Source of the DNA: Escherichia coli
GTDB taxonomy: Bacteria > Pseudomonadota > Gammaproteobacteria > Enterobacterales > Enterobacteriaceae
Length of the DNA: 64,000 nt
Assembly (NCBI RefSeq): GCF_051903065.1
Contig: NZ_CP178438.1
Direction: 5' to 3' (one strand)
In this document: piece after piece, positions 15,311 through 24,073 of the stretch
How the letters are laid out: the number at the start of each line of letters is the position of its first letter
How positions within the stretch are numbered: the first letter of the stretch is position 1
Translations under genes and position numbers: made by a program
Notes under the pieces: model-generated
Told to the model about the DNA's origin: nothing
Databases searched by the model: none
Seen by the model: the letters and a program-made list of their open reading frames with translations, nothing else

Positions 15311-15504
15311 TCCCGTTTCAGCATCCCGCTGAAATCGTCGGCTTACCTCCTTTCGCCATGCATGCAGTCTATCGCTGACTTGCGGATAAAATAGTTTCCA
15401 GTGTGATTATTGCGTAACGTCTCGCAAAGAATATTTGCTGGCAGGATCGCAGACTGCAAAGCCTGCAGATTGACAATCTGACCGTGAAGGCATACTTTCA
15501 GGAG

Positions 15505-15640
15505 TGAGGGTTGAGCGGGGTTTCCCCCGCCCTGGTAGTCTTAGTAAGCTGGCCAGCTAATGACTAAGAGCACCACGATGATGAGTAGCTTCATCATGAC
15601 CCTTTTCTTATTAAAGGATGACAAAATAATACAAATCACT
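15505..15640 (+). ncRNA. sibB: SibB antitoxin sRNA, antisense to ibsB (ends approximate)
   Basis: Second copy of the Sib repeat. Promoter TTGACA (15470-15475), 17-nt spacer, TACTTT (15493-15498). Overlaps ibsB. Confidence 0.55.
15541..15597 (-). CDS. ibsB: Type I toxin IbsB, 18-aa hydrophobic peptide MMKLLIIVVLLVISWPAY
   Basis: Hand-translated minus-strand ORF in the second Sib/Ibs repeat unit. Confidence 0.75.
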   Translation of the reverse strand: MMKLLIIVVLLVISWPAY

Positions 15641-15961: not shown

Positions 15962-16324
15962 ATGTTAAAGCTATTTGCAAAGTACACCTCGATTGGTGTG
16001 CTGAACACACTTATACACTGGGTGGTTTTTGGTGTATGTATCTATGCCGCGCATACCAATCAGGCTCTGGCAAACTTCTCAGGTTTCGTTGTGGCTGTGA
16101 GCTTTAGCTTCTTCGCGAATGCAAAATTCACATTCAAAGCATCGACTACAACGATGCGCTACATGTTATATGTCGGGTTCATGGGAACACTGAGTGCTAC
16201 TGTTGGATGGGCTGCTGATAAGTGCTCGCTTCCTCCAATTATCACTCTTATCACCTTCTCCGCCATCAGCCTGGTGTGCGGTTTCGTCTATTCAAAGTTC
16301 ATTGTCTTTAGGGATGCGAAATGA
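15962..16324 (+). CDS. gtrA: GtrA-family bactoprenol-glucose flippase, 120 aa
   Basis: 120-aa four-helix membrane protein; near-identical to phage P22/SfV-type GtrA as I recall it ([20 protein letters not shown]...). Confidence 0.9.
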
Positions 16325-17241
16325 AAATATCTCTGATTGTTCCTGTCTTCAATGAAGAAGATGCGATACCAATTTTCTATAAAACGGTACGTGAATTCGA
16401 AGAGTTGAAGCCTTATGACGTCGAAATTGTATTCATAAATGACGGAAGCAAAGACGCCACGGAATCAATTATTAACGTTCTGGCTGTTTCAGATCCGCTA
16501 GTTGTTCCGCTGTCATTTACACGAAACTTTGGTAAAGAACCAGCATTGTTTGCAGGGTTAGACCATGCAACGGGCGATGCTGTTATTCCTATTGATGTTG
16601 ACCTGCAAGACCCGATTGAGGTTATTCCTCATCTGATTGAAAAGTGGCAGGCAGGTGCCGATATGGTGCTGGCAAAACGTTCAGATCGTTCAACTGATGG
16701 AAGATTAAAACGGAAAACCGCTGAGTGGTTCTATAAGCTTCACAATAAAATAAGCAATCCAAAGATTGAAGAGAATGTCGGCGATTTCCGCCTGATGTCT
16801 CGAGAGGTGGTAGAAAATATCAAACTACTGCCAGAGCGTAACCTGTTTATGAAAGGCGTTTTATCTTGGGTTGGCGGTAAGACGGATGTTGTTGAATACA
16901 TCCGTGCTGAACGCGTTGCCGGAAGCACAAAATTCAATGGCTGGAAGCTATGGAACCTGGCGCTTGAGGGAATTACAAGTTTCTCGACCTTCCCCTTACG
17001 CGTGTGGACTTACATCGGCCTACTTGTTGCGGGACTCTCGTTCCTTTACGGGGTGTGGATGATTTTCGACACATTGGTGTTCGGTAATGCTGTCCGCGGA
17101 TATCCTTCTATTCTTGTATCTATTCTCTTTTTAGGTGGCATTCAGTTAATTGGTATTGGGGTGCTGGGAGAATACATCGGCAGAATTTACGTAGAAGTTA
17201 AAAATCGTCCTAGATATGTACTTAAAAAAATAAAAGGTTAG
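16321..17241 (+). CDS. gtrB: GtrB bactoprenol glucosyltransferase (GT2 family), 306 aa
   Basis: GT2 motifs (DGSKDAT, DVDLQD) and C-terminal TM helices; 4-nt overlap with gtrA. Confidence 0.9.
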
Positions 17242-17246
17242 AGAAT

Positions 17247-18623
17247 ATGCGCATTTCAAAAAATGAAAAATACCTTTCATTGATTATGATAGCATTTTAC
17301 TTGCCATTTTTATTATCTGATTTACCTTTTAGGGACGATCTAAGCAGGACTTATTGGGGTTTTGTTGGGTTGTCTCAATTAGGTAGACCATTGGCAGACA
17401 TTGTTTATAGTTTGGTTGGATTTGGCTATGAGGGTGTTAACCTCAGCCCTATGCCTAAAATTATAGCGCTATTAATAATATTATCGTCTGCGATATTTTC
17501 ATACAGAACGCTATTCAACTCAATAGGAGCAACCGGGTTACTCTCTTTATCTATTTTCTTTGCAAATCCATTTATTATTCAAAATTTTGCATATCAGTAC
17601 GACTGTTTTCCAATGGCTTTATCTATTTTATTGGCGACATTATCTGTATTATATAGACCAAGATCAAGCTATTTTTATTTTCTTAGCGCATCATTTTTAT
17701 TAACTAGCGCAATATCACTTTATCAAGCATCTATATTTATTGCGGCATCTTTATATTTATGTAAGATCACTATTTATTTCGTTAACGATAGAAATCGCAG
17801 AGATGTTTTTATAGAATGCATGCTTACTCTTTTGTCTTCTTTTTTCTCTATTGCATGTTACATGGTGATTTTACTTTTTGTAGAAAATGGCGTGTCAAAA
17901 CGAGCTAGCATTACAGGGCCAAGTGGCGTTATTAGCAATATCGAGTTCCTTTTGGATAGGTTAAATAGCCTTTACCACTCGGTTTATATTTTTTTTATTA
18001 TTTTGTCATTAGTATTAATATTCTCTCTCTTGAGGATTTTTATCCTAAAAAGATATATCAATTTATGCGTGATATTACTAATACTTGTTGCGCTGCTAGT
18101 CTCTTCCCTACTCCCATCTGTCATCCTTAAGGAAGGGTTCGCCGGACCAAGAGTTTTAATGTCTATTTGTTCGGTATTTATATTTATATCTATCATTGCA
18201 ACCGGAAAAGAAAAATACGTATACGCCATGGTGTTATCTGTTTTAATGATGCATTCCATGTCTATTTCATACGCATTTTCAGGTGACATTAAGGCACAAT
18301 ACGATAGATACTCGATGATATCATCTCTTGTTTATAAAGATATTGATAATTACGTGTCGTCAAATACAGCAAAAATATACATTTCTTGCAAATCAACCCC
18401 ATCACAAAGAGAGTACGTTTTCTATAAATTCAACAATCACATAGCATGGCTCAACCCAGAAGAGGCTTGGGCTATCAGGTTTTTCATAAGAAATAATGGC
18501 GAGAGCAGGGTGGTGCACTCATGGGATGAATGCTTTGATATAAATGGAGGTAAGATCGTTAAAGAAAATGCATTTTATAAAATGGTTGAAAATAAAAATT
18601 CTTACTATTTCATAATGAAATAA
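17247..18623 (+). CDS. gtrC: GtrC-type serotype-specific O-antigen glucosyltransferase (polytopic membrane protein), 458 aa
   Basis: Third gene of a gtr operon; highly hydrophobic and AT-rich with strong codon bias relative to its neighbours, typical of horizontally acquired gtrC-type genes. Target specificity cannot be called from sequence. Confidence 0.7.
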   Translation: MRISKNEKYLSLIMIAFYLPFLLSDLPFRDDLSRTYWGFVGLSQLGRPLADIVYSLVGFGYEGVNLSPMPKIIALLIILSSAIFSYRTLFNSIGATGLLSLSIFFANPFIIQNFAYQYDCFPMALSILLATLSVLYRPRSSYFYFLSASFLLTSAISLYQASIFIAASLYLCKITIYFVNDRNRRDVFIECMLTLLSSFFSIACYMVILLFVENGVSKRASITGPSGVISNIEFLLDRLNSLYHSVYIFFIILSLVLIFSLLRIFILKRYINLCVILLILVALLVSSLLPSVILKEGFAGPRVLMSICSVFIFISIIATGKEKYVYAMVLSVLMMHSMSISYAFSGDIKAQYDRYSMISSLVYKDIDNYVSSNTAKIYISCKSTPSQREYVFYKFNNHIAWLNPEEAWAIRFFIRNNGESRVVHSWDECFDINGGKIVKENAFYKMVENKNSYYFIMK

Positions 18624-18849: not shown

Positions 18850-21381
18850 CTATATAACGGATAGCGTTCTTATGTCATTGCTAGCTGGTGATGCCATAAC
18901 TATCTGTGTTACGTTAGCGCCAGACACCGTATACGTCAGAATTACGTTACCAACGGCTCCTATATTAAAGTTTTGTTTAGCTCCTGAGGTACCTATAGCT
19001 CTGGCATTCGTTAAAGTATACGTGCTTCCCGCAGTGAATCCTGTAGCAATTACAAATTGTTGACCAACTTTAAAAGGAACTGTCATTGTTGCGGATGTTG
19101 ACTCGACAGTAGCAAACGGCAGGCCAGGCTGTTTAACCCCCGTCACATCCCAGAACTCACAGTTACGCACCAATGCTCGACCAATTAAATCGCGAGTTAC
19201 AGGGAATGTTGTCTGGTCCTGTGATAAGAATGCTCCAACAATTTGCACGTTATCGAGCGTAATATCGTGTACTGTGGCCCCATCTATAGGACTTAACGTT
19301 GGTGATGCACTCCATAATTTACCACCCTTCATTTTGATACTTACAGGCCCGTTAGGGTCTGTCCCTCTAAAAGCGCGAATACTCTCAAATTTGCAATCTG
19401 TAAATTCATAGCTGCCGCGTTGGTTAGTTTCGAACAATGTATACGCCTCACCTGACACTCCGTGTCTTACATCACTGGCAACAACGCGCGGATTATGGCG
19501 GAATGATGCAGACGTGACAGAGAAAAATGGCGCGCAGACATCGTTAATAAGAATGTCTGTTGTATAACGCCCTGTAACAGCGCTCTCAGAGTCACTCATA
19601 TCCGAATATAGCGCTTTGAAGCGGGAGAAGTCTATGTTTAGACCTATTCCTGCACTTTTTGGTAATTGTCCAAAATCAAGCCCGTCAATAACAATTTTCT
19701 TAGGGAAATAAAGGGTGTTATCTCGAGCTACAGTTATTAATGTACCCGGATAAGTCAAGACGAAACCTGGATACATTTTAACATCTTTCAAGGTAACATT
19801 ATTGAATAACGTGGGGCTTATAGGCGACCCGCTACTAGGCCCTTGCCCAGCAGTAACAGCTGCGTTTATGATACCATTTCCGGGTGCGCCGCTGCGCAGG
19901 CCAGTTAACTTAATATTCTCCATGTATAAATCACCATCGAAGCCCCCCCCCAGCGTCAGAGCGAGTCGAAATAATATTACCAGGCTTATATGGTGAAGCA
20001 TTAAATATTGAATTGGTTACATACAAATCCCCGATACCAGAAGCGACGACACCATAAGTCCCAATATTACAGTCATTTATCTTTAAGTAGTTTTGGAAAG
20101 GTCTGTGGAAATCAATTCGACTAAGATCGCATCTTTCAAACCTTATATTGGCGCAATTATTGCTGCCTGTTGCCCCCCAGCCTTTACCATTTGCCGTTGC
20201 GTTTTTGATAGTGACATCCATAGAGTTAGATAGGGTTAAGGCGTATGCGTAGCTATCAACACCATCTATTAAGGCGTTTGCTATGGCTGGCGTGTATAAA
20301 CCATCAACTGTAACATCATAGCTTTCGTTAATTTCTATCCTGATATCATTAAAGTTTTGCGTTATCGGTCTGTTAATAAATGTCGTATTAACCAAGCGAA
20401 CTCGTGATGCTTGATTAATATAAATAATTCGATAATTCTTTGTAAGACTTTCGTCTATAGTCAATCCCTTAAGGTCTGCACATCTTTGCGTATTTTAAGT
20501 GCTTTAATTGATGTTGCGTTAGTTCCTAGGGCGTACTTAAGCGGGTTTTCAATGTATCCACGGTTATATACCCTGTTGAAATCTACGCGAGTTTGATTAA
20601 CGCCATCGAAAATAAACATAGGTTGAGATGTCGATAACTGAATGAAGCAACCGTCAAGGTCGGTATTAGAAGCCAAACCATCAAGATAGTTGCTACCTAT
20701 GTCGCGAGAGCCACTGGTGGACGTATTAACTCCATTAACTGGAGCCGAACCAGAACCGTATGTAACAGGGGCGACAGGCTGGCTAATAACAATTTGCCCT
20801 TTCCATGTAGCCGATGGTTTAAGCACACACCCGGTTAAATCCACATTTAAACTTTTAATATCAAGATAAGTATCACCATCTAGTAGAAAAGTTCCGTCAG
20901 ATTGCCTAACGTCTAAATTATTTGAATAAGCATAGTTCAGTGCCTTAGCTATGGCGGGAGCGTCATTTGTTACTCCATCACCAATAGCGCCAAACTCCTT
21001 CAACGTTACCCAGTATTTTACTTTCTCCAAGCTCTTTTGATATTGATCTGGGTCGTACTTCAGCACATTAGGAAAATAGAACTGCTGCGCACCATATGCA
21101 TCATAAACAGCCATAGAGTGGCCTTGCACAGTTACGAACTTGGCAATCTGTCCGTTATATACCGGATATCCAGCAGCGTTAATGATGATTGGTTGTGAAA
21201 CAGGAACGTGAGAACCATCCTCATTCTCCACATAAATCTGAATCTGGTTTTCAGGATTTACCGGGTCAGTGTCAATTTTTCCTATATAAATTTTGCCATT
21301 GGCAACCGCTTTAAAAGAACGTGCCATAGTGAAGAGTTGCGAAGGCATGCTTACCACAACATTTGCGGTGATATCTGTCAT
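18850..21381 (-). pseudogene. P22-like phage tailspike gene broken into three reading-frame segments (306 + 177 + 383 aa)
   Basis: The N-terminal ~120 aa ([34 protein letters not shown]...VLKYDPDQY) is the conserved P22-family tailspike head-binding domain. Downstream segments are beta-helix-like. Frames switch near 20461-20464 and at a G9 run (C9 on + strand, 19943-19951). Confidence 0.7.
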
Positions 21382-21438
21382 TTAATTTGCTCCAGATTCA
21401 AGGAATCGCCGCAGCATGGCTACGGTGAATTTTGTGCA

Positions 21439-21462
21439 TAAAAAACCCAGCCGAAGCTGGGT
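21439..21462 (-). terminator. Candidate rho-independent terminator upstream of the tailspike gene
   Basis: On the minus strand: CCCAGC-TTCG-GCTGGG hairpin followed by TTTTTTAT. Confidence 0.4.
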
Positions 21463-21522
21463 CGTTGCGTTGGTTATCTGTAAGTAGTTATGTGCTTAGG
21501 TAATTTGTATTAGCTCAGACCT

Positions 21523-22690
21523 GATCTGACAGTTACCGGTTATTTATACAGGTATCTGTCAGATTACATCCGGCTTAAATTTTTCTCGGCCCAGATGCGC
21601 TTTCCATCAAGTAACGTTTCCATTGGCGTCCGCCCATTGCGCATTTTTCCCTGATGGGTTCGTTCATTATTATAGTGAGCCAGCCACTCATCAAGATCCG
21701 ATTGCAATGTATCGAGAGCTCCATACAACTTTTTACGGAACGTCACCTGATAAAATTCGTTCAGTATCGTCTTATGGAACCGCTCGCAGATGCCATTTGT
21801 CTGCGGTGACATCGCTTTAGTTTTCGTGTGGTCTATATCATTTATTGCCAGATATAGCTGGTAGTCATGCTGTTCCACCTTACCGCAGTACTCTGTTCCT
21901 CTGTCGGTCAGTATTCTCAGCATTGGCAGGTTTTGCGATTCGTAAAATGGCAACACACGATCATTCAGCAGGTCAGCAGCCGTGATCGGTGTTTTGGTTA
22001 CATACAGTTTACAGTGTGCGACCTTCGAGTAGGTGTCAACGAACGTTTGCTGATAAATGCGTCCGACTCCTTTCAGATTACCCACGTAGAACGTATCCTG
22101 AGAGCCCAGATAACCGGGATGTGCGGTTTCGATTTCACCACACGCTTCGTCATCGCTGGCTTTACGCTCCAGAACGACTATCTGTGCTTCTGTCAGCTCG
22201 ATACCGTCACGGGCTACTTTTTCCTCCAGTGCTTTCAGCCGCTTTTTGAAGTTCTCAAGGTTATGCCGCAGCCAGACAGAACGTACACCCCTTCCTGAGA
22301 TGAAGACACCTTGCTTACGTAGCTCATTGCTGGTCCGGTGCTGGCCATGCGCAGGGTACGCGATGGCATAATCAACAACGGCCCGCTCAGTTGCATCATC
22401 GGTACGATTTTTTAGATTGGGCGTTCGTCGAGTGCGGTTAATCAGTGCATCCACCCCACCTTCATCAGCCAGTTCGCGATAACGGTAAAACGTATCACGC
22501 GAGACGCCCATGATTTTGCAGGCCTTCGAAACATTGCGGAGTTCTTCAGCCAGATTGAGCAAACCGGCTTTGTGTTTGATGACGGGATTGTTAGTATGAA
22601 GCATGAGAGTTACCTCGTGTTTTGTATAAGGATTCGACACCCATATCAAAACCGGTAACTCTCAACCTTTCAAGGCTCAGTGTCAGATCA
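21523..22690 (-). mobile_element. IS481-family insertion sequence (~1.17 kb)
   Basis: Terminal inverted repeats TGATCTGACA at 21523-21532 and, as reverse complement, 22681-22690. Single DDE transposase gene inside. No obvious target-site duplication. Confidence 0.6.
21564..22604 (-). CDS. IS481-family DDE (rve) transposase, ~346 aa
   Basis: N-terminal HTH region plus rve-type catalytic core ending in the IS481-family signature SPQTNGICERFHKTI. Start taken at MLHTNN; the track ORF begins 15 codons upstream at 22649. Confidence 0.75.
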   Translation of the reverse strand: MLHTNNPVIKHKAGLLNLAEELRNVSKACKIMGVSRDTFYRYRELADEGGVDALINRTRRTPNLKNRTDDATERAVVDYAIAYPAHGQHRTSNELRKQGVFISGRGVRSVWLRHNLENFKKRLKALEEKVARDGIELTEAQIVVLERKASDDEACGEIETAHPGYLGSQDTFYVGNLKGVGRIYQQTFVDTYSKVAHCKLYVTKTPITAADLLNDRVLPFYESQNLPMLRILTDRGTEYCGKVEQHDYQLYLAINDIDHTKTKAMSPQTNGICERFHKTILNEFYQVTFRKKLYGALDTLQSDLDEWLAHYNNERTHQGKMRNGRTPMETLLDGKRIWAEKNLSRM

Positions 22691-22755
22691 AGTCGCGACT
22701 AATACATGTACCCGTCATTCAGACGATTCCCGACAGTGTTTCATAATTCCTCCAT

Positions 22756-22773
22756 TTTTCTCCCTTATTGGCT
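22756..22773 (+). promoter_or_regulatory. BaeR-binding box in the mdtA promoter
   Basis: TTTTTCTCCCTTATTGGC matches the BaeR consensus TTTTTCTCCATDATTGGC as I recall it, ~55 bp upstream of the mdtA start and ~65 bp from the IS481-family end. Confidence 0.55.
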
Positions 22774-22825
22774 GGCTACACTAGTATCATTCCGCGAAAC
22801 GTTTCAGGAAGAGAAACTCTTAACG

Positions 22826-24073
22826 ATGAAAGGCAGTTATAAATCCCGTTGGGTAATCGTAATCGTGGTGGTTATCGCCGCCATCGCCGCATTCTGGTTC
22901 TGGCAAGGCCGCAATGACTCCCAGAGTGCAGCCCCAGGGGCGACGAAACAAGCGCAGCAATCGCCAGCGGGTGGTCGCCGTGGTATGCGTTCCGGCCCAT
23001 TAGCCCCGGTTCAGGCGGCGACCGCCGTAGAACAGGCAGTTCCGCGTTACCTTACCGGGCTTGGCACCATTACCGCTGCTAACACCGTTACGGTGCGCAG
23101 CCGCGTAGATGGTCAGTTGATGGCGTTACATTTCCAGGAAGGCCAGCAGGTCAAAGCAGGCGATTTACTGGCAGAAATTGACCCCAGCCAGTTCAAAGTT
23201 GCATTAGCACAAGCCCAGGGCCAACTGGCAAAAGATAAAGCCACGCTTGCCAACGCCCGCCGTGACCTGGCGCGTTATCAACAACTGGTAAAAACCAATC
23301 TCGTATCTCGTCAGGAACTGGATGCCCAACAGGCGCTGGTCAGTGAAACCGAAGGCACCATTAAGGCTGATGAAGCAAGCGTCGCCAGCGCGCAGCTGCA
23401 ACTCGACTGGAGCCGCATCACCGCACCAGTCGATGGTCGCGTTGGTCTCAAGCAGGTTGATGTTGGTAACCAAATCTCCAGTGGTGATACCACCGGGATT
23501 GTGGTGATCACCCAGACGCATCCTATCGATTTGCTCTTTACCCTGCCGGAAAGCGATATCGCTACCGTCGTGCAGGCGCAGAAATCCGGAAAACCGCTGG
23601 TGGTAGAAGCCTGGGATCGCACCAACTCGAAGAAATTAAGTGAAGGCACGCTGTTAAGCCTCGATAACCAAATCGATGCCACAACCGGTACGATTAAAGT
23701 GAAAGCACGCTTTAATAATCAGGATGATGCGCTGTTTCCCAATCAGTTTGTTAACGCGCGCATGTTAGTCGACACCGAACAAAACGCCGTAGTGATCCCA
23801 ACAGCCGCCCTGCAAATGGGCAATGAAGGCCATTTTGTCTGGGTGCTGAATAGCGAAAACAAGGTCAGCAAACATCTGGTGACGCCGGGCATTCAGGACA
23901 GTCAGAAAGTGGTGATCCGCGCAGGTATTTCTGCGGGCGATCGCGTGGTGACAGACGGCATTGATCGCCTGACCGAAGGGGCGAAAGTGGAAGTGGTGGA
24001 AGCCCAGAGCGCCACCACTCCGGAAGAGAAAGCCACCAGCCGCGAATACGCGAAAAAAGGAGCTCGCTCCTGA
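22826..24073 (+). CDS. mdtA: RND multidrug efflux membrane fusion protein MdtA, 415 aa
   Basis: Start taken at MKGSYKSRW (signal-anchor); the track ORF extends 40 codons upstream. Confidence 0.9.

Follow-up and report, generated by a model that had tools for sequence, protein, structure and literature searches.

Insertion sequences (IS) of the IS481 family (type element IS481 of Bordetella pertussis; NCBIfam NF033577) are about 1.2 kb long, carry one uninterrupted DDE open reading frame (ORF) with an N-terminal helix-turn-helix (HTH) and an rve core, are bounded by imperfect inverted repeats starting TGT, and generate a short target-site duplication of fixed length. Bordetella IS481 makes 6-bp duplications at NCTAGN and has well-known outward promoters. 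Where an IS activates an RND efflux operon from upstream, as IS1 or IS2 does at acrEF, it brings in or generates a promoter or inactivates a repressor, and a resistance phenotype was selected. IS-mediated adjacent deletion, a route of prophage decay, leaves flanks that were not adjacent ancestrally, no target-site duplication, and cargo genes from which the rest of the prophage interior has been lost. The locus described here, in a 64,000-nucleotide stretch of Escherichia coli DNA (the window), resembles the last of these: very probably, a complete IS481-family element, present once, lies on a deletion junction where a prophage was cut down, the mdtA promoter was left intact with little or no effect on it, and the product was inherited in one clone. 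The finding is ordinary. Its value is mostly one of annotation, namely a P22-like serotype-converting prophage reduced by an insertion sequence to its gtrABC cargo, together with a corrected description of the element (1,201 bp, 26-nt inverted repeats, 7-bp target duplication).

The window holds only one copy of the 1,201-bp IS (Table 1). Its transposase scored 279.1 bits against NF033577 (cut-off 224), with 282 of 284 model positions covered, and 78 bits against the IS3 model, below the cut-off of 160. Pfam HTH_29 and rve/rve_3 domains lie in a single 346-aa ORF, which encodes the HTH and the DDE (rve) core with no programmed frameshift, and the assignment to the IS481 family made in the first-pass annotation is thus borne out. 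The translation is present in the protein collection (exact look-up), and database naming goes no further than 'IS481 family transposase'; the nearest common enterobacterial relatives of the IS share only 87-88% DNA identity with it. ISKpn28, found in Klebsiella pneumoniae mgrB, belongs to the same family and is of similar size (about 1.1 kb; PMC6101004). Because the inverted repeats of ISKpn28 (ATATTGCAATT and AATTGCAATAT; PMC6101004) are unrelated to those of the present element, which begin TGTATTAG, the two are not the same.

Table 1. Features of the prophage remnant, the insertion sequence and the mdtA upstream region (positions in the window).
Feature	Position	Strand	Basis and remarks
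SibB antitoxin RNA gene	15470-15612	+	Rfam RF00113, 133 bits, full length
ibsB toxin ORF	15541-15597	-	Overlaps SibB gene; RefSeq Ibs toxin annotation, corrected for 1-bp offset
Putative attachment-site core, CTTATTAAAGG	15607-15617		Alignments with K-12 and strain 2018-05-2CC
gtrA	15962-16324	+	Intact ORF; RefSeq annotation of near-identical ECNB21-M121 locus
gtrB	16321-17241	+	Intact ORF; RefSeq annotation of near-identical ECNB21-M121 locus
gtrC	17247-18623	+	Intact ORF; RefSeq annotation of ECNB21-M121 locus; Pfam Glucos_trans_II on product
Tailspike pseudogene	18850-21381	-	Three overlapping frames (20461-21381, 19931-20464, 18850-20001); ORF list
Terminator-like hairpin	21444-21463	-	Phage spacer between upstream ant/gp16 gene and tailspike gene
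Complete IS481-family insertion sequence	21506-22706	-	1,201 bp; inverted repeats and homology limits of copies elsewhere
IRR, terminal inverted repeat at transposase gene 3' end	21506-21531	+	Adjoins phage DNA
Transposase gene	21564-22604	-	Intact, 346 aa; coordinates match RefSeq CDS WP_114007566.1 of ECNB21-M121 locus
IRL, terminal inverted repeat at transposase gene 5' end	22681-22706	-	Adjoins the chromosome, 119 bp before mdtA ATG
Native mdtA upstream region, retained	22707-22825	+	119 bp, all DNA unique to mdtA; K-12 comparison
BaeR box, TTTTTCTCCCTTATTGGC	22755-22772	+	17/18 against consensus TTTTTCTCCATDATTGGC; same sequence in K-12
Candidate -10 hexamer, TAGTAT	22782-22787	+	9 bp downstream of BaeR box; relaxed promoter scan; predicted core promoter
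mdtA	22826-24073	+	First gene of mdtABCD-baeSR; ORF and RefSeq annotation

Imperfect terminal inverted repeats of 26 nt, complementary at 21 of 26 positions (TGTATTAGCTCAGACCTGATCTGACA and TGTCAGATCAAGTCGCGACTAATACA), bound the element; chance would be expected to produce no such pair. Homology to independent copies elsewhere breaks off at these same ends (query positions 107-1307), and the 1,201-bp unit recurs in more than 15 other contexts. The limits of 21523-22690 first given for the element were accordingly wrong, and the 10-bp inverted repeats noted at that stage, although real, are merely the inner part of the 26-nt repeats. As the true IS end is at 22706, the element stops 48 bp upstream of the BaeR box and 119 bp short of the mdtA start codon, in place of the earlier estimates of about 65 and 135 bp. 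Its transposase is transcribed away from mdtA.

This copy is flanked by GGTAATT on the left and TGTACCC on the right, and with the corrected ends no target-site duplication between 2 and 10 bp long was found, so the initial report of a missing duplication holds. The check suggested alongside it, a search of other genomes for copies with intact duplications, turned up perfect 7-bp duplications at 7 of 10 loci with near-identical copies and in four of six copies that are about 87-88% identical; strain EC7072022BGR has about 10 copies with fresh duplications, an indirect sign of transposition activity. Since other copies usually have perfect 7-bp duplications, the missing one carries weight. It concerns the history of this copy and not its membership of the family: the element itself conforms to the IS481 pattern with a fixed 7-bp duplication, whereas the copy at mdtA departs from it owing to its place on a deletion junction. 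Unlike IS481 of Bordetella, the element was seen here with neither a 6-bp NCTAGN duplication nor outward promoters.

On its left, the element adjoins the spacer that runs, in P22/HK620-like phages, from the ant or gp16 gene to the tailspike gene. This flank is 91% identical to HK620 and CUS-3, and its homology to three intact P22-like prophages breaks exactly at 21505, the last base before the IS. The hairpin within the spacer is kept in intact P22-like prophages and is annotated as a 'terminator' in HK620 and epsilon34. The adjacent tailspike gene is frameshifted and differs from its ECNB21-M121 counterpart by a 1-bp indel at 19943. It matches PHROG tailspike families (E = 6e-110) and has an N-terminal head-binding domain of P22/HK620 type, which Pfam (Head_binding) recognizes on that ORF as well; the 5' end of the gene has 91% DNA identity to HK620 and CUS-3. 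Beside it lies, in convergent orientation, gtrABC (15962-18623), a prophage O-antigen glucosylation module with a GC content of 32-45% against 50-60% for host DNA. A P22-type tailspike next to a convergent gtrABC module marks the remnant as P22-like (Lederbergvirus-type). The integrase and the second attachment-site junction are absent from the window, in which the gtr-side junction alone survives (15607-17).

The host side of that left junction is formed by sibB/ibsB. Homology to K-12 stops at 15617, and the DNA is phage-specific from 15618 on. Strain 2018-05-2CC has a remnant at the same chromosomal site that comprises a partial integrase, the integrase-side attachment site, an extra ibs copy and, complete, the 279-bp spacer that precedes mdtA, and its integrase-side junction carries CCTTATTTAAGG. 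This remnant therefore places the attachment site in sibB/ibsB and makes the losses in the window visible. A tRNA was considered as the integration target; none is present, and the sibB/ibsB locus is the target instead. Our literature search on a prophage site beside mdtA found nothing relevant. The chromosomal loss, at least 139 bp of sib/ibs DNA, is only a lower bound, because the number of ibs/sib units varies between strains (2 to 4 per strain).

On the right, the flank is chromosomal DNA from upstream of K-12 mdtA, starting from the base 119 bp before the ATG, and the IS junction coincides exactly with the end of a sib repeat unit. The retained region is identical to K-12 at 117 of its 119 positions, with SNPs at 22710 and 22731. 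Downstream, the annotated order is mdtA-mdtB-mdtC-mdtD-baeS-baeR, orthologous to the K-12 region. Against the 18-bp BaeR consensus TTTTTCTCCATDATTGGC, as quoted in PMC3915751, the box at 22755-22772 is the sole such match within the window. The first-pass annotation had recognized this box, correctly in substance (17 of 18 positions match) but one base off, at 22756-22773. It had also judged the box and the core promoter intact, in agreement with the two differences from K-12 in the 119 bp before the ATG. The spacing between the box and the candidate -10 hexamer is similar to the PhoB/OmpR-family arrangement. Upstream elements had been described as displaced; the upstream DNA is indeed altered, yet it has been lost and not merely displaced, with sib/ibs repeat DNA gone and the DNA unique to mdtA kept. 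The mdtABCD-baeSR promoter proper is thus untouched.

We place the IS on a deletion junction because it lacks a duplication, its left flank is phage DNA and its right flank is chromosomal; the two flanks, phage on one side and chromosome beyond the attachment site on the other, were not adjacent ancestrally. These flank comparisons give strong support to the proposal that the prophage was truncated by a deletion in which the IS was involved. A deletion or rearrangement of this sort had been suspected from the outset, and phage homology that ends exactly at the IS, followed by chromosomal DNA, agrees with it. The locus does not differ in kind from other IS-mediated adjacent deletions; here the deletion runs past the end of the prophage into the chromosomal repeats and ends exactly where mdtA-specific sequence starts.

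The junction is not an assembly artefact: six complete RefSeq genomes, with origins in China, in Ecuador and on a calf farm, share it identically, and it recurs in three further GenBank assemblies. Every complete RefSeq genome that has this mdtA allele, six in all, carries the IS structure, and the next closest allele is 99.0% identical. The arrangement is vertically inherited and fixed in one E. coli clone. Three of these genomes have a second, identical IS copy at the ybhC-ybhB locus, on which the transposase accession WP_114007566.1 is also annotated. That copy has a 5'-truncated integrase on one side and another gtr module on the other, again with no duplication, and therefore the same IS has behaved in the same way twice in one lineage.

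The history that we favour would begin with integration of a gtrABC-bearing P22/HK620-like phage at the 3' end of sibB/ibsB, upstream of mdtA. The IS would then have entered the phage spacer immediately upstream of the tailspike gene, and an IS-associated deletion extending rightwards from it would have taken away prophage DNA estimated at 30-35 kb, together with the integrase, the attachment site on the integrase side (attL) and no less than 139 bp of chromosomal sib/ibs DNA. The outcome would be the present order of sibB, gtrABC, tailspike pseudogene, IS, 119 bp of native promoter and mdtA. For the deletion itself, the most likely route is that local transposition placed a second, directly oriented copy upstream of mdtA and that homologous recombination between the copies then removed the intervening DNA. 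No parental form, whether an intact prophage with the IS and a GGTAATT duplication or mdtA preceded by the IS between two copies of TGTACCC, was found in 5,426 complete E. coli genomes or in contigs encoding an identical transposase; for this reason we infer both the order of events and the mechanism of deletion.

Nearly as likely as the two-copy route is a one-step adjacent deletion, in which the transposase-proximal end of a single IS upstream of the tailspike gene attacked a site 119 bp upstream of mdtA by intramolecular transposition, with no second copy involved. We regard this as a real possibility, though the less probable one. The locus does retain a single IS copy, and both duplication-less copies in the lineage have the transposase-proximal end toward the integrase side of the prophage, which fits one-ended growth of a deletion; however, shared polarity of two copies is a 1-in-2 coincidence. 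IS3/IS481-type DDE transposases are thought to use a copy-out-paste-in mechanism, and on that basis the more conventional route passes through two copies that then recombine. The sequence itself reads the same under either.

For mdtABCD-baeSR, the most likely consequence is that BaeR-dependent control would be changed little or not at all, judging from the sequence. It is unlikely that the IS alters expression of the operon, through an outward or hybrid promoter or through loss of an upstream input such as a CpxR site, and was selected for doing so. Fixation of the structure in a clone with a wide geographical spread would fit selection, but a neutral change would become fixed in a clone equally well. 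Disruption of this region is rare, the mdtA upstream spacer being at least 80% intact in 5,409 of 5,419 genomes, and an unrelated strain has an independent ISCro1 insertion nearer still to mdtA. Against a new promoter, and so against the first-pass idea that outward transcription from the IS could alter basal pump expression, the transposase is oriented away from mdtA, and standard and relaxed scans of the last 100 bp of the IS and the junction found no outward sigma-70-like promoter, weak or non-sigma-70 sites lying beyond the reach of a consensus scan. The comparison with IS1 or IS2 at acrEF therefore extends to position, directly upstream of an RND efflux operon, and stops there: at mdtA the scan detects no outward promoter and the native activator site is intact. 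As for a lost input, CpxR is reported to co-regulate mdtA, but all 119 bp unique to mdtA are retained and the loss is confined to repeat DNA. The K-12 spacer gives only three-mismatch matches to the CpxR consensus GTAAA-N5-GTAAA, and the lost K-12 segment has no good one; the overall number of matches, 69 against about 52 expected, exceeds the shuffles only weakly, and the scan carries little information. Literature naming the regulators gives no coordinates for the mdtA transcription start or the CpxR site, the primary footprint and start-site papers lying outside the search.

A bolder form of the idea is a little less probable again. It holds that the deletion endpoint was no accident, sparing precisely the 119 bp unique to mdtA: removal of the sib/ibs toxin-antitoxin repeats and of distal input would have rewired basal or Cpx-dependent mdtABCD-baeSR expression and been selected in the globally dispersed clone, with the ISCro1 insertion into an otherwise 99.8% conserved spacer as a convergent case. 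Should the deletion have changed how the efflux pump or BaeSR is controlled, the locus would represent a naturally occurring regulatory variant that has become fixed in an E. coli clone of food, animals and humans.

Two further histories would explain the missing duplication by other means than a deletion, and both are very improbable. Reciprocal exchange (inversion or translocation) between the mdtA and ybhC-ybhB copies would account for both missing duplications, and the copies are identical and co-occur; it is ruled out by half-sites that fail to cross-match (mdtA copy, GGGTACA / AATTACC; ybhC-ybhB copy, GCTCATG / CATTTGT, in IS orientation) and by normal E. coli gene order at both loci (yegL-ibs...mdtA and ybhC...ybhB-bioA), and three genomes have the mdtA copy without the other. 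Simple insertion upstream of mdtA or into the phage, with the duplication later erased by point mutation, would call for an IS-free genome in which GGTAATT directly precedes TGTACCCGTC; the flanks do agree at three of seven positions (GGTAATT against TGTACCC), but flank comparisons refute it, as phage homology breaks at the IS and chromosome follows, so that the two sides derive from different ancestral molecules, and in the strain that keeps the integrase end they are separated by an integrase remnant, an attachment site and an ibs unit.

The IS481-family insertion sequence (IS) upstream of mdtABCD-baeSR is real but ordinary: both the element and the deletion scar that it occupies are of familiar types. 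Its transposase scored 279 bits against the IS481 model NF033577 (cut-off 224), with nearly the full model covered, and carries the Pfam domains HTH_29 and then rve/rve_3. This bears out the family named in the first-pass annotation, and RefSeq already has an IS481-family transposase annotated; an IS3 model scored far under its cut-off. The ends of the IS are fixed because its 26-nt inverted repeats and the homology limits of other copies agree. The repeats are the longest of the region (21/26 complementary), and their degenerate pattern matches these two sites and no others across 64 kb, where chance alone would give none. BLAST matches to copies in unrelated contexts stop exactly at 21506 and 22706 (query 107–1307), and over 15 further loci contain the same 1201-bp unit bounded by TGTATTAG...CTAATACA. 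The earlier boundaries (21523–22690) were therefore misplaced; the accompanying 10-bp repeats, TGATCTGACA / TGTCAGATCA, form the inner part of the 26-nt repeats.

Features of the region between ibsB and mdtA
Feature	Position	Strand	Details
Phage attachment site	15470–15620		sibB/ibsB 3′ region; inferred core ~CTTATT[A/T]AAGG
Surviving phage DNA	15618–21505		5.9 kb
Tailspike gene	18850–21381	minus	broken into three reading frames
IS	21506–22706
Inverted repeats of the IS	21506–21531 / 22681–22706		26 nt
Transposase ORF	21564–22604	minus	346 aa; NF033577 match
Upstream promoter candidate	22718–22747		TTCAGA-18-CATAAT
BaeR box	22755–22772		17/18 vs published consensus; identical to K-12
Candidate −10 hexamer	9 bp downstream of BaeR box		TAGTAT; relaxed promoter scan

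The window is E. coli chromosome, differing from strain ECNB21-M121 (NZ_CP083585) by 13 substitutions and one 1-bp indel over 1399–42830. The extra C at 19943, a tailspike frameshift, is not in ECNB21-M121; either the window belongs to a near relative rather than to that strain itself, or the base is an assembly error. The locus reads yegL, ibsA/sibA, ibsB/sibB, gtrA gtrB gtrC (an O-antigen glucosylation module), tailspike (minus), IS481-family transposase (minus), mdtA mdtB mdtC mdtD baeS baeR; in K-12, a 279-bp spacer directly follows ibsB, then mdtA. RefSeq annotation of the matching genome (locus L001) also places an IS110-family transposase beside asmA (window ~780–1806; L001 1–408) and a frameshifted gatZ from ~41985 onward (L001 40586–41431).

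The position of the IS is a deletion junction. On its left, the 125 bp from the tailspike start codon (21381) are a conserved P22-like phage spacer with a terminator hairpin; in such phages this spacer separates the ant or gp16 gene from the tailspike gene. Spacer and tailspike gene start (21100–21505) share 91% identity with HK620 and CUS-3 and 93–96% with several E. coli prophages. Aligned with three intact prophages, identity runs to ...TAGGTAATT and ends exactly at 21505/21506, beyond which the intact phages carry the upstream gene's stop codon. The right flank, from 22707, is the K-12 mdtA upstream region (117/119 bases identical to the ATG at 22826). With phage DNA on one side and chromosomal DNA on the other, the two flanks derive from DNA adjacent in no ancestor. 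K-12 DNA absent from the window is the tail of a sib (QUAD) repeat unit, where repeat homology ends ...CTCGCAAA; K-12 mdtA-specific sequence starts with TGTGCCC, the exact point where the IS abuts. The junction (22706/22707; 4000/4001 in comparison locus L002) thus falls to the base on the repeat end, a coincidence with a chance expectation of ~1–2%, and exactly the mdtA-specific 119 bp are retained.

Copies in other genomes, where the first-pass annotation had proposed looking for intact target-site duplications, define a 7-bp expectation. Perfect 7-bp direct repeats flank 7 of 10 near-identical transposase loci (GTTGAAT, ACTGACT, GTTAAGG, CTTCACT, ATTGAAG, TATTATC and GCTTATT) and 4 of 6 copies that are ~87–88% identical. 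At its corrected ends the window copy has no duplication (left GGTAATT, right TGTACCC), as had been noted before. The earlier proposal of a deletion that truncated the prophage was right in substance, given the phage left flank, chromosomal right flank and missing duplication.

To the left of the island, K-12 homology ends at 15617, inside CTTATTAAAGG; this point lies 20 bp past the start codon of ibsB, where the SibB RNA has its 3′ end. At the same position, strain 2018-05-2CC carries a different, also degraded, gtr-carrying remnant (locus L006, 29950–30400) in the order partial integrase, CCTTATTTAAGG, ordinary sib-repeat DNA, a further ibs gene, the complete 279-bp spacer and mdtA. This integrase-side structure places the phage attachment site in the 3′ region of sibB/ibsB, a type I toxin–antitoxin locus. 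No tRNA gene is present at the site as an integration target, and a literature search found no description of a sibB/ibsB attachment site. The surviving phage DNA keeps intact gtrABC ORFs and has a GC content of 32–45%, against 50–60% in flanking host genes. These comparisons show that the prophage interior is gone from the window, together with the integrase, the integrase-side attachment site (attL) and no less than 139 bp of chromosomal sequence. The chromosomal loss may be larger, as the number of ibs/sib units separating yegL from mdtA ranges from 2 to 4 among E. coli strains (L016 2793–3837; L006; L002). P22-like genome sizes (38–46 kb) give an estimated loss of ~30–35 kb.

Copy-out-paste-in is the mechanism generally attributed to IS3/IS481-type transposases, and we therefore favour a route in which a local hop would have produced two directly oriented copies, recombination between which would have deleted the intervening DNA. 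Almost equally likely is a deletion made by intramolecular transposition in a single step. Simple insertion with later decay of the duplication is excluded by the non-adjacent origin of the flanks.

BaeR-dependent control of mdtA is most likely unchanged. The BaeR box is intact, as first described, although shifted by one base from 22756–22773, and the corrected IS end lies 48 bp upstream of it rather than ~65 bp. A −10 hexamer at this distance past the activator box is typical of promoters served by OmpR/PhoB-family activators. The first-pass annotation had suggested that outward transcription from the IS could alter basal mdtA expression; transposase transcription runs away from mdtA, and standard and relaxed scans covering the final 100 bp of the IS and the junction itself found no promoter-like pair oriented towards mdtA. 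Upstream, the one promoter candidate is native DNA, present in K-12 too. CpxR input at mdtA has been reported in the literature; in the K-12 segment lost here, the CpxR consensus GTAAA-N5-GTAAA matched only with 3 mismatches, and the overall number of hits (69, with ~52 expected) was just slightly higher than in shuffled sequence.

Six complete RefSeq genomes share the full junction (21400–22830) at ≥99.9% identity; their sources are meat (China), humans (Ecuador) and a calf farm. Three additional GenBank assemblies have the junction as well. Because exactly those six genomes carry the window's mdtA/mdtB allele (next best allele 99.0% identical), the junction is a clonal, vertically inherited marker and no assembly artefact. 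The parental, pre-deletion arrangement was found in none of the genomes searched. Disruption of the mdtA upstream spacer is rare: 5409 of 5419 genomes keep ≥80% of the 264-bp K-12 version. In WWCOL-315 (L015 1332–4093), an independent ISCro1 (IS66-family) insertion lies between ibsB and mdtA, nearer mdtA than the IS481 element; native mdtA upstream DNA restarts only ~92 bp short of the ATG, which leaves ~21 bp of it ahead of the BaeR box. There is a small possibility that spacer conservation and this insertion reflect selection on the region; neutral events are equally compatible.

Three of the six junction genomes carry an identical transposase at the ybhC-ybhB (lambda attachment) locus, between a 5′-truncated integrase and a second gtrABC module (ECNB21-M121, L027 8628–14410), with no duplication (flanks GCTCATG / CATTTGT). 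On the simplest reading, the same IS hollowed out a gtr-carrying prophage twice. Reciprocal inversion between the two copies is excluded because their half-sites fail to cross-match and gene order is normal around both. In the unrelated strain EC7072022BGR (L007, L033, L036), a near-identical IS links a truncated paaZ with DNA upstream of pdxI and has no duplication, probably another deletion, which removed the paa cluster. The IS appears active there, since most of its ~10 copies have fresh 7-bp duplications. Metagenome contig ERZ27241892 k141_98544 (L023) combines the ybhC-integrase flank of the second copy with the tailspike flank of the window copy across the IS; it may be a real recombinant, but chimeric assembly across the 1.2-kb repeat is the probable cause.
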